From: a virus
DNA length: 64,000 bases
Virus record (IMG/VR): IMGVR_UViG_3300045988_179014
Location: 1-64,000 of that record
Reading direction: 5' to 3' (one strand)
This document shows positions 31,357-63,313 of this stretch, piece by piece. The notes under the pieces were generated by a model. That model did not search any database. It was given only the letters and a program-made list of their open reading frames with translations, and was not told the origin of the DNA. The translations under genes were made by a program, and so were the position numbers. Numbering within the stretch: the stretch's first letter is position 1; every line of letters begins with the position of its first letter.

Positions 31357-33357
31357 GTGGAGTTCAAACGATTGGATTTCGGGGTTGGGTCGGTTTCTGG
31401 GACTGATGGGACCGAGAATACGGTTGATGCATATGTTGACAATGTGTCTGAAGATGATGCGCACATGTCTGATTCGGCGGATTCTGCTGTTTTGCCTCAT
31501 TTTCGTCGTTTGGTTTTACCAGGTATGGGGGATTCCAACGGTTCTAATGATTCCAATAATTCTGAGGATGGTTCTGTTGTGAATGATTGTTCTGTGAATG
31601 GTTCATTTGCTGCTGAGTTGGTGGATGAAGATTTTGGCAGTGATTCTTCTGATGCTTCTAATGTTGATGGGGTTGGACATGATTCGTTGGTGAGTGATTC
31701 TGGAAACAGTGTTAACAGTGGTGTTTATGTTAATACTGGTTTGGGTGATGGTGCTGCAAATGTGGTTGGCGGTTCGTTTTCTGAGGTTGGGGGTGTTTCT
31801 TCGGGCGAGGTTTTACACAGTGTGGACAATGTTGTGGATAAGTCTGTGGATAATGTGGTGACGGGTTCGTTGGGGTCTTGTGCTGGTTCTGGTGTGCGGG
31901 ATTCTTTGTTGGGGGATGATGTTTCTGTGACATGTCAGACTTCAGGTGCCGTCATGAGGGGTGAAGAAAATGCTGTGGGTTCGGTGGTGGATTCAGGACA
32001 TGATGCTTCTTTTGGGATATCTTCTGCTGTTGAGAATACCTACGATGATGTCAATGATGGGGATGTGGGCGTTGATGGTTTTGGGGTTTTGTTGGGTGGT
32101 TTGTTGAGTGATGACGAAACTGATGAGAGTGTTTCGGTTGTTGTTGATGGTGCTGGGCGGGAGCGTGTTGGTGAGGGTGCTCCGGGGGTTGGGGTGCACC
32201 GGAATGAGTCTGTTGGCGGACGTGAGAAGACTGAGGTTGTTCGTGGTGCGGTGAGGATGAATGTGCGGGAGTTGGGGTTTTTCCGTAATTTGTCTTCAAC
32301 CAAGAGTGGTGTTTTGAATGATGAGTCGTTGGTTCGTGCGTTACGTGGACCGGTTTCGGGTAAGGAATCTGCTGGGGAACGTCGTGAGCGTTTGCGTTTG
32401 CACGGTCAAGGGTTGCGGGGTCGGCGAGTGTTTGAGCGGGGGTCTCGGTTGAGGTTCAGTGGACGTGACCGTGAGGTGTTGCGGTTTCTGGCAATGTTCC
32501 GGTATGCAACGGATTCTCAGTTGTCTCGTATGTTCTCTGTTGTTCCTCGTACCATGCTGAACCGTTTACTGAAGCTGCGGAAACAGGGTTTGGTTATTGA
32601 CCGTAAAATGTATGGTGCTCGTCCTATTTGGTTTTTGACTGAGGCTGGGTTGTTGTTGTCTGGTTTGGATTTGCCTCGGGTGACTGAATCCAAGTTGACT
32701 TTTTCCATGTTTCCACATCAGTTCACTGTTAATCATGTGGCTGCTAATTTGTGGGGGGCGAATGTGAACGTGTTGGGGTTGAAGGATTTTCCGGCAAAGA
32801 ATCGGGTTGATGGTCAGGGTGTTGTAACGTTTGGCGAGGAGCTTGTTTCAGAGTTGGAGATTCAGTCTTCATTCGGAAAGATTAAAATGTTCGACAAAGC
32901 TGAGGTGTATCGCCCTGGTTTGTTGAAGTCTATTGCGAATGAGTTTCAGGTGTGGGAGGAGTCTGGTGGGGTTTCGTTTGGGCCTTCTCCGGAAATGGTT
33001 TTGGGTAATGAGTACATGTGGGCTTTGATGCCTCCTACTATTGTCGGGTTGGCATATCATGTGCCGGATTTGGTTGTGAAACGTGAACGTGCTGCTGATG
33101 GGTCGCCTCGTAGTATTGCTGTTGAAGTGGAAATCAACAACAAACCTACACACAATTATGAGAAAACTTTGCGTGCTTATCGTGATGATATGAGATTGTA
33201 TGAGAAGGTTGTGTGGGTGTGTAAAAACATTGGTCCTGCTCGGAAACTTGAAAACATTGCCAAGGAGATTGGTTTGTGGCAGGAGGGGCGGATTGAGATT
33301 TTGCCTATTGTTACTGCGGATGGTGTTTTCAAGGAGAGGGATTTGTGGACAATTTGA
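31357..33357 (+). CDS. Replication-relaxation family protein (putative replication initiator / relaxase accessory) with about 330-aa acidic disordered N-terminal extension
   Basis: The C-terminal half starts with the wHTH pattern typical of the Replic_Relax (PF13814) family: VLRFLAMFRYATDSQLSRMFSVVPRTMLNRLLKLRKQGLVIDR, followed by FPHQFTVNHVAANLW. The N-terminal 330 aa are Asp/Ser/Val/Gly-rich low complexity, yet the frame stays open despite a stop-prone composition. GTG start with GGAGG RBS. Confidence 0.55.
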   Translation: MEFKRLDFGVGSVSGTDGTENTVDAYVDNVSEDDAHMSDSADSAVLPHFRRLVLPGMGDSNGSNDSNNSEDGSVVNDCSVNGSFAAELVDEDFGSDSSDASNVDGVGHDSLVSDSGNSVNSGVYVNTGLGDGAANVVGGSFSEVGGVSSGEVLHSVDNVVDKSVDNVVTGSLGSCAGSGVRDSLLGDDVSVTCQTSGAVMRGEENAVGSVVDSGHDASFGISSAVENTYDDVNDGDVGVDGFGVLLGGLLSDDETDESVSVVVDGAGRERVGEGAPGVGVHRNESVGGREKTEVVRGAVRMNVRELGFFRNLSSTKSGVLNDESLVRALRGPVSGKESAGERRERLRLHGQGLRGRRVFERGSRLRFSGRDREVLRFLAMFRYATDSQLSRMFSVVPRTMLNRLLKLRKQGLVIDRKMYGARPIWFLTEAGLLLSGLDLPRVTESKLTFSMFPHQFTVNHVAANLWGANVNVLGLKDFPAKNRVDGQGVVTFGEELVSELEIQSSFGKIKMFDKAEVYRPGLLKSIANEFQVWEESGGVSFGPSPEMVLGNEYMWALMPPTIVGLAYHVPDLVVKRERAADGSPRSIAVEVEINNKPTHNYEKTLRAYRDDMRLYEKVVWVCKNIGPARKLENIAKEIGLWQEGRIEILPIVTADGVFKERDLWTI

Positions 33358-33389
33358 GCAAGTTTTCAAAGAGTTGGAGGATGTTGTCC

Positions 33390-35072
33390 ATGTTGGGTTC
33401 TGATGTGAGTAATCCTTTGTTGGATGATGAGGATGAAGTTTATCCAGTTGTTGAAAATCCTGTTGTTGAGCGGTCTGGAATGTCACAGCGGGGTTCATCA
33501 ACTCGTGGTGGGGAATCCATTGTTGAGGAGCATTTACCAAAAGAGGATTCGTTTTTTGGTTATGGGGCTTTTTCTGGTTCGGGTGTTTCCTCTGCTGTAA
33601 TTGATGCGAATGATAACACGTTTGATGATGTGGCACGTTTTGAACAGGATTTTCCGGATGGCCATGGGAACTGGGTGGAATCTGTTCATAGGATGGATAA
33701 ATCTTTTGATGATGTGTCTGATACTGTTGTAGCGGGATTTGATTCTTCTTCTACTGACGATTTCGTTGACAGTGTTGGTGTTTCTGATGGGTTGTCAAGC
33801 GATGATGCTGAACCATTGTCTTTTGGTGGGGATTCGTTGGAGGATTTGTTGGGTCCGGTTGATGGGTCTGATGATGTTGCTGCGTCGGAGGATTTGTATG
33901 ACAGTATGGATTCCATTTTAGCGGCTGCTGATGGGGCTTTGAATGAGGATGATTCCAGTTATTATGCTGTGACTGATGATGACGATGAGTTGGGTGGCTT
34001 GTCATTGGATGCAATTATTGGTCAGGCGATTGAGATGGAGGCGTCGGATATTCATCTTTCATCGGACGACATGGTTGCGTTCACTATTCTGGGGGAGATT
34101 CATCGGATACCGGATTGGGGGGTTTTGAATTCGGTTCAGGTTCAGCGAATTTATACGTCTATTGCATCGCACGTTTCTCAGGACGATTTTGCGAAAGATT
34201 TGGAGTTGGATACGTCATATGTTGTGAAGACTGGTAGGCATCGTGGGCGTCGTTTGCGTTTGTCGGTTGGTAGGTCTTTTCACAATGTTTTCATGGTTTT
34301 TCGTGTGATTGCTGATGTGATTCCGACGCCTCAGGAGTTGGGTGTTTCTGGGAGTTTGTTGGAGTGGTGTAATTTGCCTAATGGTTTGGTGATGATGAAT
34401 GGTCCGACTGGTACGGGTAAATCAACTACTTTGGCTTCGTTGTTGCGGCAGATTCAGTTGACTCGTCCTGCGAAGATTATCACGATTGAGAAACCTATTG
34501 AGTTTGTGTATGGCACTGATGGTAAGGCGTTGGTGACTCAGCGTGAGGTTGGTGGTCGTGATACTCGAACTTTTGCTGGGGCTTTGACTTCTGCGATGCG
34601 TCAGGCTCCGGATATCATCATGTTGGGTGAGGTTCGAAATCAGGTTGAGGTGAATGAGCTGTTGCGTGCTGCTGAGACTGGGCATTTGGCGATTTCCACG
34701 ATGCACACAAATTCGGCTCCTGCTACTGTGAACCGTATCAAGGGTTTGTATCAGGGGGATGACCAGATTCGTATTTTGGGGTCTTTGTCTGAGGTGGTTC
34801 GTGGTTTTGCGAATCAGGTTTTGTTGAAGACTCCTGATGGTAGTGGCAGGTTTGCGGTGCGCGAGGTCTTGGACGTTGATGAAACTGTGTCGCGTATGAT
34901 TCTGCGTGGGGATGTCGAGGGTATCAAAAACTATCAAATGTCCAATGGTATCACGATGGAACATGAGTTGGTGAAAGTTGTGTTGGATGGTCGTGCGAAT
35001 CGTGAGGAAGCCCGTAGAGCAACTTCGAATGTGGCTCGTTTTGACCATTTGTTGAAACAAGCTATGCAGTGA
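33390..35072 (+). CDS. PilT/PilB-family (type II/IV secretion) ATPase with about 230-aa acidic N-terminal extension
   Basis: Walker A GPTGTGKSTT, Asp box ITIEKPIEFVY...TQREVG, Walker B DIIMLGEVR, His box HLAISTMHTNSA. T2SSE N-domain-like segment EASDIHLSSDDMVAFTILGEIHRIP. The ORF track starts at GTG 33345 (overlapping the upstream stop); ATG 33390 has GGAGG 9 nt upstream. Confidence 0.7.
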   Translation: MLGSDVSNPLLDDEDEVYPVVENPVVERSGMSQRGSSTRGGESIVEEHLPKEDSFFGYGAFSGSGVSSAVIDANDNTFDDVARFEQDFPDGHGNWVESVHRMDKSFDDVSDTVVAGFDSSSTDDFVDSVGVSDGLSSDDAEPLSFGGDSLEDLLGPVDGSDDVAASEDLYDSMDSILAAADGALNEDDSSYYAVTDDDDELGGLSLDAIIGQAIEMEASDIHLSSDDMVAFTILGEIHRIPDWGVLNSVQVQRIYTSIASHVSQDDFAKDLELDTSYVVKTGRHRGRRLRLSVGRSFHNVFMVFRVIADVIPTPQELGVSGSLLEWCNLPNGLVMMNGPTGTGKSTTLASLLRQIQLTRPAKIITIEKPIEFVYGTDGKALVTQREVGGRDTRTFAGALTSAMRQAPDIIMLGEVRNQVEVNELLRAAETGHLAISTMHTNSAPATVNRIKGLYQGDDQIRILGSLSEVVRGFANQVLLKTPDGSGRFAVREVLDVDETVSRMILRGDVEGIKNYQMSNGITMEHELVKVVLDGRANREEARRATSNVARFDHLLKQAMQ

Positions 35073-36374: not shown

Positions 36375-36620
36375 TTATGTGGAGGAGGAAGACGGTAAGG
36401 TGTCAATTAAGTAGCCCAGAGAACTCAATGTGTCCATCAAGTGCGCGAGGATTTCTTTGAATCTGCTTTTGGTGGCTTCAACATTGGAAGCAGTGACTTC
36501 AATTCCAAAATCTCTCATGAAGTTGACCAAATACTCATCTTCATAATCGGATTGTCGTAGCATCCACCATACTGCTTCTCGTGATGCTTTATCAATCATT
36601 CTTGCTTGCTCTTCTGTCAT
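36375..36620 (-). CDS. Small hypothetical protein (81 aa)
   Basis: Isolated ORF in the otherwise ORF-poor G/T-rich stretch. Confidence 0.3.
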   Translation of the reverse strand: MTEEQARMIDKASREAVWWMLRQSDYEDEYLVNFMRDFGIEVTASNVEATKSRFKEILAHLMDTLSSLGYLIDTLPSSSST

Positions 36621-38349: not shown

Positions 38350-38394
38350 GGAATAGAATAATCCCCACCTCAATTTGGCATCTTGGGTGGGGAT
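38350..38394 (-). terminator. Putative terminator hairpin downstream of ligA
   Basis: atccccacc (38361-38369) pairs with ggtggggat (38386-38394) around a 16-nt loop. The minus strand continues TTATTCTATTCC, 24 nt after the ligA stop. Confidence 0.4.
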
Positions 38395-38417
38395 TGTATT
38401 ACTGTGGGGTCTTGAAC

Positions 38418-40800: not shown

Positions 40801-42201
40801 TCAGTTGATGTTTTCGCTGAGACGGTATCTTTTACCAATGACGGCACGAGCCAATCGTCTGACGGCATCACGAAGGTCTGGATGTTTCAGCACTGTTTCC
40901 ATGGATTGAAGATTAGCAGCATGGGCCAACAGTTTTGCATTATTGGGGATAACGGTCACTACGGGGAGACCTAGTGCGGAACGAGCAATCCGGTCTCCAC
41001 TCATGTTGATGTTGTCCATCGCTTTGTTGACGACAATACCGATTTTCTTCTTGGAGATGCCCATGCCTTGTTCAGCTTTGGATTTGGTTACTTCTTGAAT
41101 CCATCGGGTCATGGAGAAAACAGAATGAACCACGATATCACTGACGAAAATGATTTGGTCAGCTAGTGGGTAAGCAACTTTCTCCAGTAATGGGTCTAGA
41201 TAATTGACTGAGGTGTCCAAAATTACGTAATCATAGTGCCGTTTTAGGAATTGGATTAGTTCAAGATAGAATTCAGCTGGGGTGTCCATGGAAAGGCGTG
41301 GACGTTTCGGAGCCAACAATAGGTCAAGTTTTAGGCGGTCACTGTGAATAACTGTTTCCTGTAGTGTGTCTAAAGCAATACCACTGGAGCGCATGTGTAG
41401 TACGGTTGGTTTTAAATGACCCGTCAGGAATCCAATTTGACCATCACGCACGTCGAGGTCAAGAATAACAATCTTCAGGGGTCGTTCTTCCAATCCTTCA
41501 GCTACAGCGTTACTGGAAGCATGTGCCAAATATGTTCCCAGAGTAAGTGCAACCGTGCTTTTACCTGACCCGCCTTTACTGGAGGTAACTGCAACCACTT
41601 GCCCTAGATAGTTTTCATCAAGTTCATCTTCCCAATCGTATTTTGGAGGTTGCTGTGCATGAACGGGCTCCATGGAAGTTGGAGTAGTTGTTTGAACATC
41701 ATTGACTAGTTCAGGGTCTTGTCCACTTAGGATTGCCACTACTTCAGTGTTGTCGCTGTTGTAAAGGTAATTGTCAATTGCTCTGTCTAAGCTGGAGTTT
41801 GGTTTTTGGGGGTCAATAAAGTACAGTTCTCGGATGTCTCCTTGACCTATTGTTGCTGATTCAATTGAAACACGCTGACGAATTTGGTCTTGATATGCTG
41901 GATGGTAGGAGATTATGGCGAAGAAACAGTATGGTGTCATTGCGGCCACTAACTGTTCCAGTGCAAAGTCTTTACCTTCTGGGTCAAAGAAACTGTCCAG
42001 TGTGATGATTATTTGAACATCATCATCAATGGTTTGTGCTGATAGTCCATCCCATAATTCTTGAATGGTGTCAACTATGGCTACAAAGTTCCAGTTTGGT
42101 CGCTTGTTTACAAAGAATTGTCCTATTTGAGCAGGGCCGACAAAAATTGCTTTAGGTGTTGGCATTGGATTACCTTTTCTTTCTGGCAACGAGGAGACCA
42201 T
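40801..42201 (-). CDS. TadZ/CpaE-like pilus assembly ATPase (ParA/MinD fold with N-terminal receiver-like domain)
   Basis: Deviant Walker A VVAVTSSKGGSGKSTVALTLGTYLA in the C-terminal half and a roughly 190-aa N-terminal domain. Sits in the Tad-like cluster. Confidence 0.6.
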   Translation of the reverse strand: MVSSLPERKGNPMPTPKAIFVGPAQIGQFFVNKRPNWNFVAIVDTIQELWDGLSAQTIDDDVQIIITLDSFFDPEGKDFALEQLVAAMTPYCFFAIISYHPAYQDQIRQRVSIESATIGQGDIRELYFIDPQKPNSSLDRAIDNYLYNSDNTEVVAILSGQDPELVNDVQTTTPTSMEPVHAQQPPKYDWEDELDENYLGQVVAVTSSKGGSGKSTVALTLGTYLAHASSNAVAEGLEERPLKIVILDLDVRDGQIGFLTGHLKPTVLHMRSSGIALDTLQETVIHSDRLKLDLLLAPKRPRLSMDTPAEFYLELIQFLKRHYDYVILDTSVNYLDPLLEKVAYPLADQIIFVSDIVVHSVFSMTRWIQEVTKSKAEQGMGISKKKIGIVVNKAMDNINMSGDRIARSALGLPVVTVIPNNAKLLAHAANLQSMETVLKHPDLRDAVRRLARAVIGKRYRLSENIN

Positions 42202-42214
42202 GATTTAACATTGG

Positions 42215-43156
42215 TCAGCCTTCCTCGTCGTTGGTGGTAGACGAAGAATTGGTGGGGGTTGGAGTTGAAGAGGATTCTGTTGATGGGTTGCAGTCCTCTC
42301 CGTTGACCTTGGCGTTTCCATGTCCACAGTTTTCCACTTGTTCGACAGGGCGTCCAAAATTGTCACGTTTAACATTGGAGAAGGTTTGGTCAGTTACTTC
42401 ACCATTATCGCTCTTACCTGGCCAGATAGGTCCTTGGTTTTGTTCATAAGAAAACATTCCATTGTAAGAGGCAAGTTGTGGTTTGTCGTATTCGTTTTGG
42501 CGCGGGGAAAGAACCAAGCGCACGTTACCATTACCGTATTTCTGCATAATGTTTTGTAGTCGTGCAGCATCACCAGGAGTCATCCCCACAACATATTGAG
42601 TGGTTTGTCCTTTGTGTGCTTCTTCAGAATCGGCAGCTGAAGCAGATGATGCATTGTTTAGGTCAACAGTGGTGTCCAAAGCCAAAACGTTCACAAATGG
42701 GTAAAAAGACCCGTTTTCGGTGGTTACCATCATGTCAAAGTATGTTCCACGTTTGATACGACCACCAACAGCATTGTCAGCTGATACGGAAAAGTTTGTC
42801 ACTACCCATGAATCAGGAATACCAGTGGCGATGTCTTCCATCCCTCCCACGTTTGATTTGGTTAGGATGTCACCAGCCAACAAGGGATATTGAGTATACA
42901 AATTACCTGTTTGAATTTCTGCAAGTCCAATAGCAGCTTTAGGTGCAGTACCTTCTGAAGCTACCACAGGTTCCAACATGTCAGGAGTAACTTGAGTGCG
43001 TGTTGGAACATCTTCTTTGAGAACGTAGTAAGTTTCTGTTTGGAACAGTTTACTTGCCAGAATAGTTACGCCAACAAAGATAGCCAAGGCAACTAGCACA
43101 ATGGCACTGAGAAGTAGGACGTTTTTGTTTGTGCCCTTGGCTTTGATGTTCGCCAT
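42215..43156 (-). CDS. CpaB/RcpC-like Flp pilus assembly protein
   Basis: N-terminal TM helix (LLLSAIVLVALAIFVGVTILA), then a SAF-like segment YYVLKEDVPTRTQVTPDMLEPVVAS. Ser/Thr-rich C-terminal tail. Confidence 0.55.
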   Translation of the reverse strand: MANIKAKGTNKNVLLLSAIVLVALAIFVGVTILASKLFQTETYYVLKEDVPTRTQVTPDMLEPVVASEGTAPKAAIGLAEIQTGNLYTQYPLLAGDILTKSNVGGMEDIATGIPDSWVVTNFSVSADNAVGGRIKRGTYFDMMVTTENGSFYPFVNVLALDTTVDLNNASSASAADSEEAHKGQTTQYVVGMTPGDAARLQNIMQKYGNGNVRLVLSPRQNEYDKPQLASYNGMFSYEQNQGPIWPGKSDNGEVTDQTFSNVKRDNFGRPVEQVENCGHGNAKVNGEDCNPSTESSSTPTPTNSSSTTNDEEG

Positions 43157-43247
43157 GTTTAGTCATTTCCTTCCTACAAAACTATTTCTGTAGTAGTTGG
43201 TTATTTCGGTTAGCAATATCGGAAACAGTAGATTAATTCATGTATGT

Positions 43248-44432
43248 TCAATTGTTCGATACAGAATCCTGTTGTTTGGCCTCTGCCATTTTTCTGCGAC
43301 GTTCTGCACGCATTTTTTCCAAAGGATTTGTTTCAAAAGCTGTGGTCCATTTTTCTTTCCAATCAGACACATGTATTGTGGAATAGCGTCCCATCCAGTC
43401 ACGCATTAAACATTCCCCTGGATTCAAATTGGTTAATGCCGCTTCAAATCCTTCACCAGGGGGCAACTGCATACCTTCAACAATTTGTGTAGCTTCTTTA
43501 GGGTCAGTGTTGAATGCAAAACGTGTGGTAATGGTGTTTTTAATGTTCAAATCGCCCAAATCTCTATCGTTTTGTGTTATCAATACAAGTGCGAGCGCTC
43601 TTGAACGACCTAAACGAGCTGCTGCCTCAATACAGTCAGCTCCAGCCGAACTTGCAAGAACAGCCCATGCCTCGTCAATAATGAGGGTTTTCGGATTTTG
43701 TGATTCGTCATGATGCATAATACGACGGATAAAATCTGTAATCAGGAAAAAGACTGTGGCACTTAACCGAGAAATGTTCCCAATATTTGATTTCAGCTCT
43801 AATCCAACCATGGTCACCACAGTAAGTCCTGAATCAAGTTTTAAAGTGGCTCGACGTCTGTTGCCAGGAGCAAAACATAAACTGGCAAAAGGCAGTCGCC
43901 GGATAAGGTCCAAACTGGCTCCAAGGTTTCTGGCTTCATCTTTATCTGACATGAGCAATGCTTCCGTTACTGCCAACAAGGAAGGTACATCGCTTTCAAT
44001 TACATCTTTTACAATGGGGGATAATACCGTGAATTGTTCATCTTTGATTCCACCTACGAGCATGTCAATAACGTTGATGACCAAGTTTAATTGTTCACCT
44101 TTGTCGCTCGCCATGTAGAAGGGGTCTAATATGCCTTTTTTCTTTGGGTCACTCAGATTCCAGAAGTTGATATCTCCGATTTCATCTTTCAATGACATCA
44201 AAGAGATAAAATCACCTTTGGGGTCCAACACGATGGTGGTTTTCCCTAAAATTGAACAAATAGTCGTGAGAGTCAAGGCCAGGAAAGTTTTACCGGAACC
44301 GGGCTTGCCTGTAATGATTGTACCTGGTGGTTGATTGTTAAAAATGGCAGTGTGTGTGTCAAAGAAAACTGGTTGGGCGACGCCTTGAGTGGTTTCCCCG
44401 ATAAACATGCTGGTGGAGTAGTTGATGTCCAT
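43248..44432 (-). CDS. VirB4/VirD4(TraG)-family conjugation-type AAA ATPase (short, cytoplasmic)
   Basis: Walker A GKPGSGKT and DPKGD (the DPKGE motif of coupling proteins), Walker B LIIDEAW, and GRSRALALVLITQ resembling the VirD4/VirB4 arginine finger/Q region. 394 aa with no TM segment. Confidence 0.55.
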   Translation of the reverse strand: MDINYSTSMFIGETTQGVAQPVFFDTHTAIFNNQPPGTIITGKPGSGKTFLALTLTTICSILGKTTIVLDPKGDFISLMSLKDEIGDINFWNLSDPKKKGILDPFYMASDKGEQLNLVINVIDMLVGGIKDEQFTVLSPIVKDVIESDVPSLLAVTEALLMSDKDEARNLGASLDLIRRLPFASLCFAPGNRRRATLKLDSGLTVVTMVGLELKSNIGNISRLSATVFFLITDFIRRIMHHDESQNPKTLIIDEAWAVLASSAGADCIEAAARLGRSRALALVLITQNDRDLGDLNIKNTITTRFAFNTDPKEATQIVEGMQLPPGEGFEAALTNLNPGECLMRDWMGRYSTIHVSDWKEKWTTAFETNPLEKMRAERRRKMAEAKQQDSVSNN

Positions 44433-44494
44433 ACTGCCGTATCTCTCTTAATTGGTGATTATTGTCTGAATTGGTTTGAAGTTGATGGATGATT

Positions 44495-44998
44495 CTACTT
44501 TTTACGCTTTTTATTGCGGAAAGTTACATTACCGGAGGCTAAATCTTCCCGTTCTTTCATGTCAGCCAGCATTTGCAGTTCCCGACGTCGAGAAATCCAA
44601 ATTTCACTTTCCGTGAAGTACACAGTTCGGTCCAGTAAATTGTTGGCATTGAGGTCGGTCCATCCTTTGGGTTCTTTGATGTAATTGACTGTTGTTTTCA
44701 AATAATCAATCAGGCCTCGTCCACCCCATACTGGTTTTGCAGCCAGATTTCCTAAAATGATGGGTGGAGCAAATGCCAAAACAGCAAACAAGAAGTTGAA
44801 TTGAAGTCCCAAAAACACTATTACTGGCACTGTCCACAAAATAAGGAATGCGGTTGTGTAAGCAACTTTTTTCAGTGAAACAGGCTTCCGGAATTTGATG
44901 TCGCCCAGACTGTACATGTATAGTTCACGATTGAAAAAGTTTGTCATGTTGACTACATGAACATATTGAGGTTCCGTCATTCTCCTTGGCCCTTCCAA
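44495..44998 (-). CDS. Membrane protein, TcpE-like (conjugative-transfer small membrane protein) candidate
   Basis: N-terminal YMYSLGDIKFRKPVSLKKVAYT followed by two TM helices (FLILWTVPVIVFLGL, FLFAVLAFAPPIILGNLA). This resembles the TcpE/ConD family layout; the call comes from pattern memory only. Confidence 0.35.
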   Translation of the reverse strand: MEGPRRMTEPQYVHVVNMTNFFNRELYMYSLGDIKFRKPVSLKKVAYTTAFLILWTVPVIVFLGLQFNFLFAVLAFAPPIILGNLAAKPVWGGRGLIDYLKTTVNYIKEPKGWTDLNANNLLDRTVYFTESEIWISRRRELQMLADMKEREDLASGNVTFRNKKRKK

Positions 44999-45172
44999 TC
45001 TTTTTAAACATTAAATCATCCAATACCAATATCCACACATCAGACGTAATCAAAAGGCTTACTTATTCCAATAAGTAATTGTTTTGAGTTTTTACACCTG
45101 TCTCATTGGAACAGTTTTGGAACAATATTCGGATTACAAAATATACTGAGAACCATATGTGAGATTATGCCC

Positions 45173-45790
45173 TCAGAAGTAATTGTGGGTTTGGATTTCT
45201 GGCGTGGTTACATATTGTGTAGGGTCTACTGATTCAATGTCCAAAACAATGGTGTATGTGTCTTTAATTCCTGACAATCCCCCGTAATGGAATGCGGTTT
45301 CTACTAAATGACTGAAATCATCATCATCCCACCAACTGGCATCGCTGAGTCCATCAACAAGAGCTTTCACAGTAGGATAAAAGTTTGGTGGGTCTATTCG
45401 CCGTTTAGTAGGGGCCAGTATGGTAACTGTAATACGAAAATGATGAAACATGACGGGTACTTCAACTGGTTCCGTATTGTTACTACGAGAATTGAATTCA
45501 CGTATAACTTTTTGGATGGCTTCATCGATTTCTTCCGTACTGGCTTTCATCTTGTTCAGACGTTTGGTGATACGTGCTTTGCGTACAGAAAGTTCAGCAG
45601 CATCCAAAATTTGATTGTATCGTTCTTCTGCTAATTGTGGGTGGTCGTGATTTTCCAGCCCTTTTTTTGCACCTTGTTCGCGAATATAATTAGCCATTTT
45701 GGATTTGACCACGAATTGGTTTGGCATGCGATTCGAGTTGAGTGTTTCTTTCCCTGAAAAGTTGAAACGTAATTGTTTATGTGTTGTCAT
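45173..45790 (-). CDS. Hypothetical protein (205 aa)
   Basis: Intact ORF inside the pilus/transfer operon. Confidence 0.5.
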   Translation of the reverse strand: MTTHKQLRFNFSGKETLNSNRMPNQFVVKSKMANYIREQGAKKGLENHDHPQLAEERYNQILDAAELSVRKARITKRLNKMKASTEEIDEAIQKVIREFNSRSNNTEPVEVPVMFHHFRITVTILAPTKRRIDPPNFYPTVKALVDGLSDASWWDDDDFSHLVETAFHYGGLSGIKDTYTIVLDIESVDPTQYVTTPEIQTHNYF

Positions 45791-45814
45791 GTGTGGTAGT
45801 TTTCGTTTGTTAGG

Positions 45815-46765
45815 TTACAGGTTTTTGATGGCGTCGACTTGTCTTTTCACCAAGAACAATCCGCCAGCATAGAGTAGTCCGGTTGCTGCTAATGCCGCCC
45901 AGGACAAAGGCTCTTGGAACCAGAAGTCTTTAGCAGCACCATCAAAGAAGAAGCTGAACAGGAATGCACCAGGAATTGCTATAGTGGCTATAATCATGGC
46001 TGGCATAGCGGATTGTACAGCGCGATTGATTTCATCTTGAACTTTTCGACGTTGTTCCAGCACTTTTTGAATGTTAACCAGCTGACTTTCCATATTTGCT
46101 CCGCTTGTTGTTGCTTGAATGAGACAAGCAGTCAAAAATTGAAGGTCACGTGAAGCAGTTTTACGGGACAATTCCTCCAACGCTTCACGGAAAGACGAAC
46201 TGGCCAAGAGTTTGTGTTTTACAACAACCAAATCTTCGTACAAAGGTGAGGGCATGTTGTCAATAATTTTCAGCATTGCACGTTCGTAGGTGTCAGATGC
46301 TTGAATATTGGCTTTAAGTGCTGAGATGAAACCTGGTAGTTGATAGTTAATAGCGTTTGATTTACGGTTTGCCATTCCTCGGGTCAACATGATAATGCCA
46401 CCAGTTAAAGCGAATGCCAAAACTATACCGGCAATAGCGTTTTGAGTTACTAATCCTATGATGAGCGCTATTGTCACTATTCCAATCAGCACATCACGAC
46501 CAGCATTATTGTTTTCTTCCCCATAGCGAGACAATCCAGCACCACGAAACAGTTTCCCCCAATAGCTATTCCATCGTTGGGTGAGAGTTAGCTTGGGTTC
46601 TGGTTTTTCGCCATGCTCATCTTCAAGTAGTTCCTGAAGCTGTTCATCATAGTTTTTACGGCCAGCACTGGAACGAATATAGAAGAAAATGAGCACACCC
46701 AAGAGAACCAGCAAAACAGTAAATATGGCAGCTACTAGAATTGGAAACAGTTGTATGTTCATCAT
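45815..46765 (-). CDS. TadB/TadC-type (T2SSF/GspF family) inner-membrane platform protein
   Basis: Cytoplasmic T2SSF-like domain (...LSRKTASRDLQFLTACLIQATTSGANMESQLVNIQKVLEQRRK...) flanked by TM helices. 4-nt ATGA overlap with the cpaF stop. Confidence 0.6.
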   Translation of the reverse strand: MMNIQLFPILVAAIFTVLLVLLGVLIFFYIRSSAGRKNYDEQLQELLEDEHGEKPEPKLTLTQRWNSYWGKLFRGAGLSRYGEENNNAGRDVLIGIVTIALIIGLVTQNAIAGIVLAFALTGGIIMLTRGMANRKSNAINYQLPGFISALKANIQASDTYERAMLKIIDNMPSPLYEDLVVVKHKLLASSSFREALEELSRKTASRDLQFLTACLIQATTSGANMESQLVNIQKVLEQRRKVQDEINRAVQSAMPAMIIATIAIPGAFLFSFFFDGAAKDFWFQEPLSWAALAATGLLYAGGLFLVKRQVDAIKNL

Positions 46766-48480
46766 GCGTTTGGTAGCTCCTGTTCCACGATGCTGCTTAA
46801 TTCTTGAAGTTCTGCCCAGTCAAGGTCTTCTTCGATATCCAGCAGTTTATTGGCTCTTCTTTCAGGGCTAATATCACCGACTTTGACCCAATGCCCCGTC
46901 ACTTTGTTGTTTGCGTCCAAACCGTCATCAACGAATTTCCAGATTGGGTTCACAGGAAGCGTGAGTCGCCCGTTGATTTCCATTGGTTCGCGGCCAACTT
47001 CATCAACAGATATGATTCGTCTTGAACCATCCAGAGGAAAGTGTTTCAAGGAGACGATAAAATCAAAAGCGGAAGCAATGAGTTCCAAGGCCCCCTCTGT
47101 GGTCACCAATCCGCCTTGTGCAATAAGTGATGACAAACGTGGAATAGCCTCTTGTGAGCTGTTGGCGTGAATAGTGGAAGCACCAGCATGTCCAGTGTTC
47201 AGAGCTTGGCACAAATCATACGCGGCATCATCAGTAACCTCACCCACAATGATGACATCAGGACGCATTTGTAGTGATGCTTTGACCAAATCACGCATCG
47301 TCACACCATGGTCATTTCCCCGGTCCATTGCAGGCATACGACATTCCATTGCAGCAGCCAACAGTTTTTTAGGATTTGGTTTCATTTCAATATTGTCTTC
47401 TAGCGTCAAAATACGCACAGCAGGTTTGTAAAACCCTGTAATAGCATTCAACATGGAGGTTTTTCCACTGTGTGTACCTCCAGACACCAGAAAGCTGGCT
47501 CCTTTGTGAACCATGTTTCCAATGAATGACATCACTTCTTCTGAGGATGAGCCGCGACGTACTAGAGCACTGGGTGTCCAGAAAGTACTTGGGTGTCTAC
47601 GAATGGAAAAATTGGGTCCATCTGGAGCAATAGTTGGATGCACTGCAAACATTCTGCTTTTATCGTGTAAACGTCCTTTTACAAGAGGAGTTGTTTGACT
47701 GACGGTTTTACCAATGGCGCTATAGAGTCGGTCAATCAAATCCAACAAATGTTTACTGTTTTTGAATTTGCATCCTGGAACTTTTCGAACTTCCCCGCGA
47801 ATTTCCACTTGCACATCCCGAGGGCCATTGCACATGATTTCATCAATAGAAGAATCACGCCACAAGGGCTCTAAACGTCCAAATCCAACAACCTCATTAC
47901 ATATAAAACTGAGGATTGTCGCACGTTGTATCTCTCCCCATCCTTTACGGGAACGAGACATGTATTCAGACGCCAAACTCTGCACTTTGAAGAATGCTTT
48001 ATCTTGATATGCGTCATCAGTTGGATTGTCTTGTGCATCCCTGATTACATCTGATGCGCCAGAACCAGCCAATTCGTCACGAACATACTGGACCCCGTTT
48101 TGAATTTCATCCTCAAACACATCGAAGTACCCGTCTGGTGCTTTCATGAGAACCGCTGCGGTAATGTAACGAGATGCTTTGATACCGCCTGTTGGATAAC
48201 GTTTCTTCAATTCATTCATGTTATTCTGAATTGCCAACAGTGTGGGGTCATTGGCATCATTCAAATAATTGGATACATGACTGATTCTTCCTGCTTTTTG
48301 AGCTTGCTGAAAAGCAGTTTCCTCATCATCCTGGTCATCAATCAACGGGTTCCGATTTGCATTCATGTGTGGTAATGTATTGGGAATACGTGATGAGGCA
48401 TTGGTGATACTGGTGGGTAATCTACTGCTGCGCATATCGGATTCTTGCGTATCGGGTTTTTTGAGAGGGTTTAAAGACAT
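46762..48480 (-). CDS. CpaF/TadA-type pilus assembly ATPase
   Basis: Walker A VSGGTHSGKTSMLNA, ILTLEDNIEM, Walker B PDVIIVGEV, His box GHAGASTIHANS. Start reassigned to ATG 48480 (MSLNPLKK..., GGAAG RBS), 4 nt after the upstream gene's stop; the ORF track extends to 48537. Confidence 0.8.
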   Translation of the reverse strand: MSLNPLKKPDTQESDMRSSRLPTSITNASSRIPNTLPHMNANRNPLIDDQDDEETAFQQAQKAGRISHVSNYLNDANDPTLLAIQNNMNELKKRYPTGGIKASRYITAAVLMKAPDGYFDVFEDEIQNGVQYVRDELAGSGASDVIRDAQDNPTDDAYQDKAFFKVQSLASEYMSRSRKGWGEIQRATILSFICNEVVGFGRLEPLWRDSSIDEIMCNGPRDVQVEIRGEVRKVPGCKFKNSKHLLDLIDRLYSAIGKTVSQTTPLVKGRLHDKSRMFAVHPTIAPDGPNFSIRRHPSTFWTPSALVRRGSSSEEVMSFIGNMVHKGASFLVSGGTHSGKTSMLNAITGFYKPAVRILTLEDNIEMKPNPKKLLAAAMECRMPAMDRGNDHGVTMRDLVKASLQMRPDVIIVGEVTDDAAYDLCQALNTGHAGASTIHANSSQEAIPRLSSLIAQGGLVTTEGALELIASAFDFIVSLKHFPLDGSRRIISVDEVGREPMEINGRLTLPVNPIWKFVDDGLDANNKVTGHWVKVGDISPERRANKLLDIEEDLDWAELQELSSIVEQELPNA

Positions 48481-48484
48481 TGTT

Positions 48485-49390
48485 TCAACTTCCAAGTGTT
48501 CCGAGCATTGAGAAAAGCGATGGTGCAAGCACAACAATAAGAAGTGCAGGCATGAGAGTAGGTGTTAACGCAATAAAGATTTTGGATTCCAATTGGCCGG
48601 TTTTTTGGTGAATCAAGGCAAAAAACTCTTGTCGACTGGCATCCACTTGATTTGCTAATGTTTCCACCATTGGAGAGTTTACCGCTACGGCGCTTTGGAT
48701 TGCTCGAATGAATGAAATGATGCTCTCATTTGGTGCACGAGTAGCAAAATTGTCTAATACTTCATCCAATGTTTTACCCGTGTCCATTCCTTTAACCATG
48801 GTGCGGAATTCCTCTTTCAATACACTTTCCTCCATGGTGGGAATAATTTCACGCAATGATTGAGCAAAAGTACGTCCACCAGAAAGAGAAATAATGAGCA
48901 AATCCAATGCTTCTGGTAGTTCACGTTTGAATTCCAAGTCACGGCGTTTGGCTTCATCACGGTAGCGAATTCGGGGAAAGAAAAAACCAAATAATGTTAC
49001 CAGTGGAACCACAATCCACCATGCTAGACCAGTGAAAGGAGTGGTGGCGACCCAGAGGAACCATCCAGCAACGAAACCTATTATTCCACTCAAGTATTGC
49101 ATGAAAATGAATTCATCTGGTCTCAACCCCCATGGATTACCAGACTTTATCAACAATGTTTCAATTTGTGGATGCACACGATTACGACGATTTGCAACCA
49201 TGCCAGCGGGAAGTGCTTTGTAAAAATCATTCCCCAAAACATTCATTAACCGCAGCATTGGTTTTTTAGCGGCTTGTTCCTCATTGTTGGGGTTGAATGT
49301 ACGATTACCTTTAGGCACAAACAATGTATACAGTATCAACACAGACAGGAGTGATACCAACCCGCTTATTACCAGAATTGAGGTGTCCAT
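48485..49390 (-). CDS. TadB/TadC-type (T2SSF family) membrane protein
   Basis: T2SSF-like segment LDLLIISLSGGRTFAQSLREIIPTMEE...MVETLANQVDASRQEF with N- and C-terminal TM helices. Confidence 0.6.
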   Translation of the reverse strand: MDTSILVISGLVSLLSVLILYTLFVPKGNRTFNPNNEEQAAKKPMLRLMNVLGNDFYKALPAGMVANRRNRVHPQIETLLIKSGNPWGLRPDEFIFMQYLSGIIGFVAGWFLWVATTPFTGLAWWIVVPLVTLFGFFFPRIRYRDEAKRRDLEFKRELPEALDLLIISLSGGRTFAQSLREIIPTMEESVLKEEFRTMVKGMDTGKTLDEVLDNFATRAPNESIISFIRAIQSAVAVNSPMVETLANQVDASRQEFFALIHQKTGQLESKIFIALTPTLMPALLIVVLAPSLFSMLGTLGS

Positions 49391-49445
49391 AAATGTCCTT
49401 TACGGTCAAAGAGCTTTATGAGCGAAATATCGAATGGTTAGGGCA

Positions 49446-49480
49446 AATATAAAAAGGGAGAGGTTATTATCCCTCTCCCT
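49446..49480 (-). terminator. Rho-independent terminator immediately after the pilin-like gene
   Basis: agggagagg (49455-49463) pairs with cctctccct (49472-49480) around an 8-nt loop. The minus strand continues TTTTTATATTT. 18 nt downstream of the stop of 49498..49797. Confidence 0.6.
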
Positions 49481-49497
49481 AGTGCTTAAGCGACAAA

Positions 49498-49797
49498 TCA
49501 GCCGAAACGTCCCTTGTAGGCGCCATCTTTCTTGAATGAATTGTCTTTGGAATGGTCAGTGTTCTTACAAATTTCAGCGGAATTAGATGATTTGTATGTA
49601 TTGGACCCTTCAATGCAGGTAGCAGTGTCAGCGGCCTTGTTTAGGATTGCGGTTGAGAACCAGTTGACCAATGTTAACGCAGCAATGGCGAATCCAGCGG
49701 TCAAAATGAGAGTCTGCACTAGGTCGCCACGGTCACGGTCGATTTCTGTAACCGCATCAGCGGCGAAAGACTCCTTAATGTTGTTGATAAAGGTCAT
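49498..49797 (-). CDS. Flp/Fap-type pilin-like protein (candidate major pilin)
   Basis: Charged leader ...EIDRDRG followed by a hydrophobic helix DLVQTLILTAGFAIAALTLVNWF. This mimics the class-III prepilin (G | hydrophobic) architecture. It is the first gene of the operon and is followed by a terminator. Longer than typical Flp, and the EY motif is absent. Confidence 0.4.
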   Translation of the reverse strand: MTFINNIKESFAADAVTEIDRDRGDLVQTLILTAGFAIAALTLVNWFSTAILNKAADTATCIEGSNTYKSSNSAEICKNTDHSKDNSFKKDGAYKGRFG

Positions 49798-49955
49798 GGT
49801 CGTTCTGTCCTCGTGTGTAGAATAGGATTTTATGATGTTTTGTGTTCATGACAAGGCATCATGGCACAAATATCAATACGATGATTTCAATTCTGTCACA
49901 GAAAGTAATGGTCACTACCCTACAAAGAGATAGTGACCATTAAAAGCCGTTTTAT

Positions 49956-50951
49956 TTATGACAGCTTATCTATTTCAGACATACTCCACTTCCACATTTT
50001 ATATGCTTTTTCTTTGACGTTTTCCACCCAAGTTTTGAAGTGTTTACCGTCAGAGACAACATCACTAGAAAGAGGATAGCTGCTTTTAATAACTTCAAAA
50101 ATAATAGCACGAGCACGCACGTGGCTGCCTAACGACAAATCCGGTTTCTCAAGTGGTATAGTACGATTACTGTATACATCTATTTGCAGTTGATTGGCAA
50201 TACTGAGCATCGCCTTCGCTATCGCGATTCTTTCTTTTTCGCTGAAGCTGATGTTGTGTTCTCGTTCCCATTCTGTTACGTACCCATAATTTGTGATAAG
50301 GATACCAACGGAACGGTCACCAGGGTCGACTTTACCATCCGAGTTACGAGCAGACCACGGCATGGATTCAGGCGAGTTCTTTGAGGATGTGGATTGATTG
50401 GATGATGTTTTCTTGTTGTTGAGTTCGTCATTGCTCATGGTGTTGGCTGAATAAATTCCTCCAGGAGCAGGGTCTTCTTTCATATTGGTGCGAGCCATTG
50501 AACTAATAGTCCATTCAGACTCATCATCAAACCGAACAGCTGCAAGAGATTTGAAAATGTTGGATTTGGCTGCATTCATGTCACCAGGTGGAGCAACTTC
50601 TGACATTGGCAACGACCGGTCAACGCCTTCTTTACGATGGTTCTCCAATCGAAAATGAATAGGCTCATTGTTGTCATGAGCTTTTTTGACTTTGCTGAGA
50701 ATGGCTTGGTCAGGAACCCATCCAGAAGGCAAATATTGACTGTTGTCAACTTTGAATTTAATGTTGTGTGAATTTCCTTTTTTGGAAGTTTCGATTTCTG
50801 CTACATGACCGAAGCCGGTAATGACTTTGACTTCTGCTCGCACCCCTTTCTCATCTACTCCATCATAGGAAATAAAGGGTTTCCGGCTGAAGGTTTTCAT
50901 GTCGCCATTATTGTTGGTCATGCGATTCTCCTTGCTTACTTGGCGCGGCAA
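49956..50951 (-). CDS. Hypothetical protein (331 aa)
   Basis: Intact ORF; no motif recognised. Confidence 0.5.
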   Translation of the reverse strand: MPRQVSKENRMTNNNGDMKTFSRKPFISYDGVDEKGVRAEVKVITGFGHVAEIETSKKGNSHNIKFKVDNSQYLPSGWVPDQAILSKVKKAHDNNEPIHFRLENHRKEGVDRSLPMSEVAPPGDMNAAKSNIFKSLAAVRFDDESEWTISSMARTNMKEDPAPGGIYSANTMSNDELNNKKTSSNQSTSSKNSPESMPWSARNSDGKVDPGDRSVGILITNYGYVTEWEREHNISFSEKERIAIAKAMLSIANQLQIDVYSNRTIPLEKPDLSLGSHVRARAIIFEVIKSSYPLSSDVVSDGKHFKTWVENVKEKAYKMWKWSMSEIDKLS

Positions 50952-53311: not shown

Positions 53312-53420
53312 GTTAGCATTCTATCAACCAAGACTATTTTGTTACTGAATTGTTGTGGTTTTCACATATACAACAATCCGTGTTTTGAAGTATTGACTTA
53401 ATGATTGAACAGCTCTAATT

Positions 53421-53969: not shown

Positions 53970-53975
53970 CTTTAT

Positions 53976-54863: not shown

Positions 54864-54950
54864 TTTTACAACCCTTCTTGTTGTGGGAAAATCATTGGAA
54901 AAATATCACAGAAATAGAATTCCAATTCATCCTGTTTCAACAAGTGTTTA

Positions 54951-62206: not shown

Positions 62207-63313
62207 TCAGTCATTGTTTTCAGCTATCAGGTCTTCTAGTTCCATGTCCCACGAATCCTCAGGACGGGAGAAGTCCTTCTTTTCCCCAAGACCCAACTCT
62301 GGTCTTCCCAGCTTGTCTTCAGAAGCGTCAGCTGTCACATCATCATTGAGACCGAATTCCTCCAAATCCAACTCGTCATCATCCATGTTGTTGGATTCCT
62401 CTTGACGGATTTGTTCAATCACGGAAGAATTGTCAACACCTTCCCGTGAATCCAAATCACCTTCCTCAAATTGAGACATGTCAACAACAGTAGCAAGTTT
62501 GGAACGCTTCTTACTGATAGGAGTTCCATCCGGGTTAAGTCCTTTACGGGCCAAATATTCATCAATCCAAGCTGGGTCAGCAAAAAGCCCTTGACCATGA
62601 TTACCAACACCATAAATACTAAGATAAAGACGGCCACGTGGGTTGGCTCTTACACGTAACCCCTCACTATTACCCAGAATCATGAGAGAAGCGTTGGTGT
62701 CAGTTCGTCCACAGTTGATACGTACACCCAAGTTGGCTTTGGTTTCACCTTTGAGAATCGTGGCATCAGGACGCTGAGTGGCAACAACAAGATGAACCCC
62801 AGCAGCACGACCAAGACGGGCAATGGAACCAAGAATCATGGCTGCTTCGCCTTTCAACTCATCATTGGCTTTACCTTCTTCGGTTTTCACTCCTTCAGGT
62901 GAGAGGAGCTCCCCCATTTCATCAACCATGACCATAAGCGCTTGCCCCTTTTCTGGCAGGTCGAGGAAGTTCTTGATTCCAAGTTGTTCCATCTCAGAAT
63001 AGCGTTTCATCATGGTCTGCTGTGCGAAACGCAATACCGTCAAAGCATCCTCCAGAGTAGTGGCAACACCTAAAACCACATTGCTGTAGGCACGAAAATC
63101 GCTTAGTTCCACTCGTTTGAGGTCAATTCCCAAGAACCGCCAATGTTCTGGACGAAGAATACACCCAAGAACAATGTTTCGTTGAACAACCGAATTGTGG
63201 GTTATCACTGAATGCCCATCATCACCACCCGCAGCGAACAACCGGTCTGGACTGTCCACGGAAATACAGCGTGATGGTACAGGGGTGATTTCTCGGGCTG
63301 ATTTTATTCGCAC
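62207..63313 (-). CDS. FtsK/SpoIIIE-family protein with degenerate Walker A (C-terminal motor-like domain)
   Basis: VHLVVATQRPDATILKGETKANLGVRINCGRTD matches the FtsK LVLATQRP...IPTRIAF region. Walker B-like MVMVDEMGEL. The position where GxTGSGKS should be instead reads RLFAAGGDDGHSVIT. Acidic C-terminal tail. Confidence 0.55.
   Translation of the reverse strand: MRIKSAREITPVPSRCISVDSPDRLFAAGGDDGHSVITHNSVVQRNIVLGCILRPEHWRFLGIDLKRVELSDFRAYSNVVLGVATTLEDALTVLRFAQQTMMKRYSEMEQLGIKNFLDLPEKGQALMVMVDEMGELLSPEGVKTEEGKANDELKGEAAMILGSIARLGRAAGVHLVVATQRPDATILKGETKANLGVRINCGRTDTNASLMILGNSEGLRVRANPRGRLYLSIYGVGNHGQGLFADPAWIDEYLARKGLNPDGTPISKKRSKLATVVDMSQFEEGDLDSREGVDNSSVIEQIRQEESNNMDDDELDLEEFGLNDDVTADASEDKLGRPELGLGEKKDFSRPEDSWDMELEDLIAENND

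Follow-up and report, generated by a model that had tools for sequence, protein, structure and literature searches.

DNA transfer of PAPI-1, a mobile element of Pseudomonas aeruginosa, involves a type IV pilus together with only VirB4 and VirD4 from a type IV secretion system (T4SS; Carter 2010, reviewed in PMC12857230). Other reduced arrangements are pRAW, with a type VII secretion system plus VirB4/VirD4, and pT33-3, with VirB4/VirD4 alone (PMC12857230). Here we describe an operon on the minus strand, running from 49797 down to 40801 of a 64,000-nucleotide stretch (positions 1 to 64,000 of IMG/VR virus record IMGVR_UViG_3300045988_179014; the whole stretch is called the window below). In this operon the genes of a Tad/Flp pilus are interleaved with a module encoding a TcpE-family protein, a VirB4-type ATPase, a RusA-like protein and a TadZ-like ATPase. 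Our preferred reading, held tentatively and at a little short of an even chance, is that it would encode a chimeric, contact-dependent pilus/T4SS machine for DNA transfer.

PAPI-1 is comparable in being a mobile element with a type-IV-filament pilus and a small T4SS subset including VirB4, for which a joint role in DNA transfer has been proposed. It differs in its diderm host, its type IVb (PilS2) pilus, its full-length VirB4 and its canonical VirD4, whereas the window has a Tad/Flp pilus, a secretin-less set of the monoderm type, a single interleaved operon, only the C-terminal part of VirB4, and no functional-looking type IV coupling protein (T4CP) that we could find. The IncI plasmid R64 is likewise a conjugative element with a mating-stabilising type IVb thin pilus, and has a PilT/DotB-like ATPase (TraJ) in its transfer system, but it carries a complete Dot/Icm-like T4SS at a separate locus and needs the pilus only in liquid matings. 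In the Sulfolobales, a contact type IV pilus (Ups) is used with the VirB4/HerA-like CedB and small membrane proteins in repair-linked DNA exchange; these systems are archaeal, occupy separate loci, and have a weak sequence link to the operon (38 bits on the CedB model, whose cutoff is 700).

Among monoderm systems, those of pCW3 (Tcp), ICEBs1 and ICESt3, collectively MPF_FA, have a TcpE-family, VirB3-like gene immediately upstream of a TcpF/VirB4-type ATPase gene, as is found here (PMC12857230). Their VirB4s are however ~800 aa long and include an N-terminal domain, they have no type IV filament genes, and they also possess VirB6-like TcpH/ConG, VirB8-like TcpC/ConB, the hydrolase TcpG/CwlT and the FtsK-like T4CP TcpA/ConQ, none of which was found in the window. 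The large Cutibacterium acnes plasmids p15.1.R1 and p11-79 have a tad locus beside FtsK-, VirB4- and TcpC-like genes, and a functional link was raised by the authors (PMC5696575). These are also monoderm extrachromosomal elements with a Tad/Flp locus and T4SS-like conjugation genes; in them the loci are adjacent and not interleaved, the plasmids are about 55 kb, and VirB4 and TcpC look conventional by the published description. In Micrococcus luteus, Flp pili are required for DNA uptake (PMC4322843). Finally, the Inocles are giant, circular extrachromosomal elements of oral Streptococcus, about 245-395 kb in size (Kiguchi 2025, PMC12340149). VirB4/VirD4 calls in Inocles (VirD4 by ICEscreen) led their authors to infer possible horizontal transmission; pili or Tad genes are not mentioned in that paper (PMC12340149).

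Organization of the operon

An earlier note, made from the letters of the window without database searches, had proposed a conjugative or DNA-transfer system built on a Tad pilus. All nine ORFs that it placed in the operon were found, in the order and at the positions it gave, and Pfam and NCBIfam profiles back most of the assignments. They are arranged head to tail as follows.

49827..49854, minus strand: sigma-70-like promoter candidate (TTGTCA-16-TAAAAT) upstream of the pilin gene, scoring 10/12 in a consensus scan
49498..49797, minus strand: Flp/type-IV-like prepilin, 99 aa; DLVQT and a hydrophobic helix follow the leader MTFINNIKESFAADAVTEIDRDRG, with two conserved Cys in the C-terminal part
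49455..49480, minus strand: hairpin resembling an intrinsic terminator, separating the pilin gene from tadB; 9-bp stem with 6 G-C pairs, followed by TTTTTATATTT
48485..49390, minus strand: TadB-like platform protein (T2SSF), 301 aa; PF00482 46 bits (cutoff 25.2), four predicted transmembrane (TM) segments
46762..48537, minus strand: CpaF/TadA-type pilus assembly ATPase, 591 aa; PF00437 (T2SSE) 113 bits; its stop overlaps the start of tadC
45815..46765, minus strand: TadC-like platform protein (T2SSF), 316 aa; PF00482 30 bits (cutoff 25.2), four predicted TM segments
45173..45790, minus strand: RusA-like protein, 205 aa; N-terminal extension of ~110 aa and a RusA-like core with the motif RRIDPPN...K...D...DDDD
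44495..44998, minus strand: TcpE-family (VirB3-like) membrane protein, 167 aa; PF12648 42.2 bits (cutoff 29.9), TM hairpin, invariant cytoplasmic WISRRRE
43248..44432, minus strand: VirB4/TcpF-type ATPase with only the C-terminal ATPase domain, 394 aa; AAA_10 (PF12846) 168.7 bits, Walker A GKPGSGKT, Walker B IIDEAW
42215..43156, minus strand: CpaB/RcpC-like protein, 313 aa; profile matches below cutoffs, N-terminal membrane anchor
40801..42201, minus strand: TadZ/CpaE-like ATPase of the MinD/ParA family, 466 aa; CbiA 34 bits, AAA_31 31.6 bits, N-terminal domain of ~195 aa

The genes overlap or are closely spaced on the one strand, and the TcpE and VirB4 genes are indeed embedded among those for the pilus. 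The only strong terminator in the operon is the hairpin with a T-run after the pilin gene (49480-49455); a terminator had been recognized there earlier, and it is a probable attenuator setting the ratio of pilin to machinery. No promoter or terminator of any strength was found that separates the Tad and VirB4 modules. The promoter listed above is a candidate only, because such sites are no more numerous in this region than in shuffled sequence.

The VirB4 module

The 394-aa ATPase had been assigned broadly to the VirB4/VirD4 family on the motifs GKPGSGKT, DPKGD, DEAW and RSRALALVLITQ, all of which occur in its translation. The VirB4 half of this assignment stands, TcpF being the best NCBIfam family (E 7e-38), and the VirD4 half does not. 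Its alignment to the TcpF model is confined to positions 467-809 of 813, plasmid VirB4s of ~850 aa are matched in their C-terminal halves only (about 33% identity), and the protein has the extent of the VirB4 C-terminal domain crystallised as PDB 4ag5. It lacks the N-terminal ~450 residues, which are not encoded by any upstream ORF either. A set of 13 homologues, 49-71% identical, shows no change at Walker A, Walker B or the other catalytic positions.

The gene for the TcpE-family protein lies directly upstream, separated from virB4 by 63 bp; its PF12648 score, well above the cutoff, bears out the earlier assignment. The 205-aa product, formerly called hypothetical, can now be described as RusA-like: it matches phrog_34 ("RusA-like Holliday junction resolvase") with E 3e-14, with weaker matches to structure 1q8r (E 0.72) and, in a relative, to PF05866 (E 0.029). 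Its gene is found at the same position in every relative, the Tad-less ones included.

The TadZ-like protein has further matches to MinD, to actinobacterial CpaE-homologue families (NCBIfam) and to a ParA-like PHROG. Since relatives without Tad genes retain it beside virB4, it may belong to the VirB4 module. A derivation from the MinD-like protein of actinobacterial T4SS clusters was rejected, the similarity being only of a generic P-loop kind (21% identity over 173 aa).

The Tad pilus genes

The 99-aa prepilin gave no match to Pfam or NCBIfam. It has one predicted TM segment (residues 26-44) and is probably of the one-helix Flp type, unlike VirB2. Alignment with eight relatives reveals a charged leader of 20-25 residues ending in Gly, a Gln or Glu 4-6 residues further on, a hydrophobic helix of 22 residues, and two conserved cysteines (C61 and C77). 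The class III signal that was sought is G/xxxxE-Y; the window has G/DLVQT, with Gln at +4, and the relatives have G/TLVET, GA/LTTIE and, in one case, the canonical G/AETVE. In the relatives inspected the gene is always directly upstream of that for TadB.

The genes for the two platform proteins flank that for the CpaF/TadA ATPase. The latter is 591 aa long from the first start codon, and 572 aa, with a start near 48480, according to gene callers on contigs of identical sequence. Its best solved relatives are the CpaF structures 8rjf and 9e24 (E 4e-58, residues 188-549); the match to TIGR03819, at 187 bits, is under the cutoff of that model. The CpaB-like protein has a TM segment at residues 14-32 and sub-threshold matches to TIGR03177 (34.5 bits against 71; E 1.2e-8) and RcpC (20.5 bits against 28.8; E 4.6e-4), and is found strictly in lineages that carry Tad genes.

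A scan of about 60 ORFs of the window turned up no secretin, no prepilin peptidase and no TadD/E/F/G, in agreement with the monoderm signature noted earlier. Absence of a secretin is the expected state of monoderm Tad systems (PMC6668835).

Conservation and modularity

An exhaustive search for the VirB4 yielded 431 representative proteins at E ≤ 1e-10, and a neighbour-joining tree of the ATPase domain was constructed. In it the short VirB4s (365-443 aa; about 60 clusters at 50% identity) form a single clade, apart from the full-length VirB4s of Gram-positive bacteria; the sole long member of this clade has an intein-like insertion in the P-loop. Gene neighbourhoods were then inspected for members from across the clade, a check that the earlier note had suggested.

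The full order pilin-TadB-TadA-TadC-RusA-like-TcpE-VirB4-CpaB-TadZ is present in nine lineages: the window, L009, L011, L022, L024, L027, L029, L030 and L031. These range in GC content from 28 to 56%, with VirB4 identities of 31-48% and TadB/TadC identities down to 25%. Because the order is conserved across such deep divergence, it represents neither a chance juxtaposition nor a purely adhesive locus.

Three lineages (L019, L020/L021 and L032/L034) are without pilin, TadB, TadA, TadC and CpaB. They retain the RusA-like, TcpE, VirB4 and TadZ-like proteins, as well as an OB-fold protein and a PilT-like ATPase with its partner, described below. CpaB thus varies together with the Tad genes, and the TadZ-like protein with VirB4. 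From the three Tad-less lineages we conclude that the constant core is formed by the VirB4 module, to which the pilus is a dispensable addition, so that the earlier description of a system built on a Tad chassis has to be turned around. The persistence of T4SS-like genes in these relatives also means that the cluster is not merely an adhesion locus; with the TcpE and VirB4 assignments also upheld, nothing was found that the earlier note had named as grounds for giving up its proposal. As two of the three Tad-less lineages differ in tree position, the most economical account is that the ancestor was a hybrid and that the pilus module was lost more than once. The pattern of presence and absence suggests that the VirB4 module is most likely ancestral and indispensable, and that the pilus has been retained by most, but not all, lineages.

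Two further observations concern the ATPases of this family. VirB4 and TadA of relatives (P0121, which is L022 5702-8203, and L024 5443-7977) contain insertions of ~415 aa and ~300 aa right after the P-loop lysine. Their boundaries are intein-like (GSGK/DLDVDTLI...THN/T and GAGK/AIHN...HCN/T), and Pfam intein models gave no match in the inserted proteins. A CpaF match in the record of the Microcystis jumbo phage MaAM05 (L045, MW495066.1) was set aside. It belongs to a canonical diderm Tad locus, complete with secretin, which adjoins rpsA, rplU, rpmA, ruvA and isoprenoid genes and looks like bacterial sequence within a phage record.

Origin-proximal region and flanking genes

Four further genes of the window enter into the discussion of DNA transfer.

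31357..33357, plus strand: origin-proximal protein, 666 aa; low-complexity variable N-terminus, winged helix, PD-(D/E)xK-like domain
33345..35072, plus strand: hexameric ATPase of the PilT family; TIGR01420 262 bits, N-terminal extension of 220 aa; at its start it overlaps the gene before it
49956..50951, minus strand: conserved 331-aa protein, N-terminal OB-fold and C-terminal helical domain; upstream of the pilin gene and associated with the cluster
62207..63313, minus strand: FtsK/SpoIIIE-like protein; PF01580 44 bits, no Walker A motif and no TM segment

The sign of both GC skew and AT skew switches near 30.3 kb, and dispersed, iteron-like repeats (TTGTGTACATGTGTTG and GCGCACACTT, four copies each) lie at 30600-31340, just upstream of the winged-helix/nuclease gene. 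Together these features suggest a candidate origin of replication.

The conserved C-terminal 367 residues of the origin-proximal protein (predicted fold, pLDDT 90.7) comprise a winged helix and a domain with invariant H-x-P-D...E-x-E...K. This protein had been called a replication-relaxation protein. A match to Replic_Relax (PF13814) does exist, at a sub-threshold 16.2 bits (E 0.012; cutoff 25.3), and two of 91 homologues carry that domain. PF13814 corresponds to the MOB_C relaxase superfamily (PMC5357655). The protein is possibly a relaxase or initiator of the MOB_C/Replic_Relax type, and possibly a counterpart of InoC, the Inocle marker. The first ~300 residues (31357-32250) are rich in Gly, Ser, Val and Asp, of low complexity and unconserved, and vary in length between strains, the protein having 666 aa here and 805-817 aa on contigs with an identical VirB4.

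The PilT-like ATPase near the origin, already recognized as such, matches PilT structures with E 7e-51, TraJ with 136 bits and DotB with 111 bits.

The FtsK/SpoIIIE-like protein had been proposed as a coupling protein. The domain is confirmed, with matches to the structures of FtsK and of a "DNA translocase coupling protein" at E 1e-12 to 1e-14; the coupling role is not, given the missing Walker A motif and TM segment. In this family (L037-L043) the P-loop is absent from all six relatives aligned, which have AAGGDDGHS or SVISNNQNGS instead, and Walker B (VDE) and ATQRPD are invariant; a TM segment is missing from every relative too. This pattern of lost and kept motifs suggests a pseudo-ATPase or an unusual motor that may depend on a partner.

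A set of replication and repair genes flanks the operon (38418-40535 and 51920-60655, minus strand) and is syntenic in distant relatives. It includes an NAD-dependent ligase (LigA), RadA/Sms, a membrane hydrolase of the YdjM family, a GyrA/ParC-like topoisomerase subunit, RecX and a PD-(D/E)XK exonuclease. A CAAX protease is encoded at 60922-61659 and an NAD synthase at 2230-3177.

There are two ORF-poor stretches, 18500-30300 and 35530-38400. They display an extreme strand bias (plus strand A 36%, C 26%, G 14%; GC skew to -0.45) that flips at ~30.3 kb, and no tandem arrays or Rfam matches were found that would explain them. An alternative genetic code was rejected: with TGA, TAG or TAA read as sense, no ORF of ≥185 aa appears between 18.5 and 30.3 kb.

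The element and its source

An identical copy of the VirB4 protein is present on contigs of 337-345 kb from several human oral metagenomes. The host element is thus a giant extrachromosomal element of the human oral microbiome, ~340 kb in size, that IMG/VR has filed as viral. IMG/VR contains the element itself (an FtsK-like gene 99% identical, on a 189-kb UViG), as well as relatives on viral-labelled contigs of 244-438 kb; another relative is on an 828-kb contig in a JGI metagenome. The GC content of the window is 39-47%, with a mean of about 42%.

There was no close relative in GTDB, with one genome per species (best match 28% identity), no close protein relative in phage and plasmid collections, and no megablast match of the 9-kb region to phage and plasmid collections. 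A cellular origin of the Saccharibacteria type, which contigs of 0.5-0.8 Mb had brought to mind, was dropped because the GTDB species genomes gave no close relative.

The element resembles the Inocles in its oral origin, its size class (293-395 kb for Inocles against the 337-345-kb contigs here), its VirB4 call, a possible replication-relaxation-domain marker, gyrase and DNA-repair genes, and its absence from isolate genomes. InoC is however ~454 aa long with an N-terminal PF13814 domain and >70% identity among Inocles, whereas the candidate here has 666 aa and a sub-threshold match. Inocle GC averages 32% (alpha to gamma) or 24% (delta). Since the window has ~42%, we consider the element a sister lineage within a wider family and not one of the described Inocles; the Tad-less relatives L032 and L034, at 31% GC, fit the Inocles better than the window does. 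Across the family, contigs range from about 190 kb to 828 kb and from 28 to 61% GC (L009, L020, L031 and others), which implies many different hosts, and sizes that go well past those published for Inocles.

The 64-kb window yielded no capsid, portal, terminase or tail protein. Phage-flavoured genes are nevertheless present; the element may be either a plasmid or a virus. A 352-aa protein (6424-7482, minus strand) has a strong match to phage RIIB lysis-inhibitor families (phrog_609, E 7e-48). A 173-aa ORF (63395-63916, minus strand) matches HNH/homing endonuclease families over no more than their C-terminal part (phrog_559, E 2.5e-17); it is likely to be a fragment, or else a small domain standing alone. 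A GOLLD RNA (RF02032, 175.9 bits against a cutoff of 150) at 10907-11273, inside 10792-11919 (minus strand), is flanked by four tRNA-like genes, two of them called tRNA-Leu by ARAGORN. The possibility of a defence system was set aside, as PADLOC returned generic ATPase matches only.

A putative DNA-transfer machine

In the machine that we favour, the Tad pilus would find, hold or pull in a partner cell, and the TcpE/VirB4 module would supply the energy for moving the substrate through the cytoplasmic membrane. Placing the machine or the DNA-protein complex may fall to the MinD-like (TadZ-like) ATPase, while the origin-proximal winged-helix/PD-(D/E)xK protein and the PilT-like ATPase coupled to it would prepare the DNA. 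Partners with a likely role in DNA handling lie in or beside the operon: the RusA-like protein, the OB-fold protein and the winged-helix/PD-(D/E)xK protein with its weak Replic_Relax match.

Several points weigh against such a machine. In known systems the N-terminal domain of VirB4 binds VirB3 and the membrane complex, and the VirB4 here is without this docking domain. No VirB6-like channel, VirB8-like protein or cell-wall hydrolase was found in the window with Pfam, its only large polytopic membrane proteins being TadB, TadC, YdjM and the CAAX protease. No coupling protein with a membrane anchor and an active P-loop was found there either, and the FtsK-like protein, which has neither Walker A motif nor TM segment, cannot be counted as a conventional one. 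A prepilin peptidase (TadV) and the pseudopilins TadE/TadF are missing from the ±10 kb flanks of relatives as well; the peptidase may be supplied by the host or encoded elsewhere in the element. The second catalytic Asp of RusA is replaced in the RusA-like protein (D-P-P-N in place of D-x-D-N), and a profile-profile comparison (hhalign) of the origin-proximal protein with plasmid Replic_Relax proteins was negative. The two modules can function separately, as the loss of the pilus genes from three lineages shows. Relatives share the synteny of the entire origin-proximal region (GyrA, YdjM, RadA ... LigA), so that some of the conserved order may reflect general conservation of the genome and not functional coupling. 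If the element is a virus, as its IMG/VR label has it, conjugation-like transfer is less expected.

The earlier note had regarded the TcpE- and VirB4-type genes as hallmarks of Gram-positive conjugative T4SSs. Their pairing supports that link, but with the rest of the Tcp/ICEBs1 set absent from the window (no VirB6, VirB8 or hydrolase genes) and VirB4 lacking its N-terminal domain, this is not a T4SS of the Tcp/ICEBs1 type.

Alternative explanations

The best of the rival explanations, unlikely in our judgement, is that two independent systems share one operon: a pilus for adhesion, aggregation or oral colonisation, and an unrelated TcpE/VirB4/RusA-like/MinD-like set serving maintenance or pilus-free transfer. 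Adhesion is the primary role of Tad pili and plasmids often carry Tad loci (PMC6668835; PMC5696575), the VirB4 module occurs without any Tad genes in three lineages, and co-variation of CpaB, and not of the TadZ-like protein, with the Tad genes is a sign of modularity. The Tad genes are however split around the VirB4 module, with TadB/TadA/TadC upstream and CpaB downstream, and this interleaving would be hard to maintain without co-regulation or coupling, since it has been kept in nine lineages down to 25-31% protein identity. Nor does any promoter or terminator divide the two modules.

It is improbable, although less so than what follows, that the operon serves DNA import and repair. Here the pilus would capture cells or DNA and the VirB4-like protein would pull DNA in, as in archaeal Ups/Ced or Flp-dependent transformation, feeding the adjacent recombination genes. 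Flp pili mediate transformation in M. luteus (PMC4322843). VirB4 matches the CedB DNA-import family with E 6e-10, which is far under the cutoff; RadA, RecX, the PD-(D/E)XK exonuclease, LigA and the SOS-associated YdjM flank the operon, and the RusA-like protein is encoded inside it. On the other hand, the window yielded neither a ComEC/ComEA-type channel nor a CedA-like protein, VirB4 resembles TcpF (E 7e-38) far more closely than CedB, and the repair genes may simply be the replication/repair core of the element beside its origin.

We give very little credence to a viral function, whereby the FtsK/HerA-superfamily ATPase and a small membrane protein would package or deliver the genome of a huge phage-like element, as in membrane-containing phages, and the pilus would alter host behaviour or exclude competitors. 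IMG/VR lists the element and its relatives as viral contigs (189-438 kb), and the rIIB-like gene, the HNH homing-endonuclease fragment and the GOLLD RNA with its tRNAs in the window are in keeping with this, as are the intein-like insertions in the ATPases of relatives and a match (E 7.5e-11) of VirB4 to a PHROG that bears the annotation terminase large subunit. Against this, the related Inocles are 16-fold enriched in the cell fraction and were classed as plasmid-like by their authors (PMC12340149). No virion genes were detected in the 64 kb, the ATPase is nearest to the conjugative TcpF, and the TcpE-VirB4 adjacency is typical of a T4SS.

Just as improbable is the recruitment of VirB4 and TcpE into the pilus machine as an extra ATPase with no DNA substrate: in the biogenesis of T4SS pili VirB4 is believed to pull pilin out of the membrane, the genes are interleaved, the N-terminal domain that is the normal dock for T4SS-specific partners is lost and other T4SS channel genes are absent from the window, but the pilin is probably of the Flp and not the VirB2 type, and TcpE and VirB4 persist where the pilin, both platform proteins and CpaF have been lost.

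Novelty and significance

The system had been called undescribed, which is true in part. VirB4/VirD4 calls in Inocles, pilus/T4SS chimeras such as PAPI-1, and tad with VirB4 in C. acnes have been published; the interleaved operon is apparently new. Also apparently new are the clade of VirB4s reduced to their C-terminal domain, the RusA-like and MinD-like proteins as core partners, and the spread of the arrangement across a highly diverse family of elements of 0.2-0.8 Mb. No publication was found that combines Tad, VirB4 and TcpE, nothing was found on TIGR03819, and nothing relevant on phages or megaphages with VirB4 and CpaF.

A broader proposal, which we regard as doubtful, is that TcpE, the short VirB4, the MinD-like, RusA-like and OB-fold proteins and the origin-proximal nuclease/PilT-like pair would constitute the transmission engine of a very diverse, so far unrecognised group of giant (0.2-0.8 Mb) capsid-less elements that are now filed as viruses in databases; in most lineages this engine would drive the Tad pilus as intercellular conduit or grappling device. 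If true, this would be a new monoderm conjugation type (a mating-pair formation class of its own), with a type IV filament standing in for the VirB6/VirB8 channel.

For secretion biology, the favoured DNA-transfer reading, if true, would provide a Tad-based monoderm counterpart of the PAPI-1 pilus/T4SS chimera and a large clade of VirB4s functioning with no N-terminal domain. A natural experiment on combining type IV filaments with parts of a T4SS would be offered by the lineages that have the pilus module and those that lack it. Automated pipelines label such elements viral, although the 64-kb window shows no virion genes. Elements of the Inocle type are reported from most human mouths, disappear in culture and are missing from isolate genomes; an operon that joins a Tad pilus to a pared-down VirB3/VirB4 pair is the best candidate for the transmission or host-interaction machinery of these giant elements.

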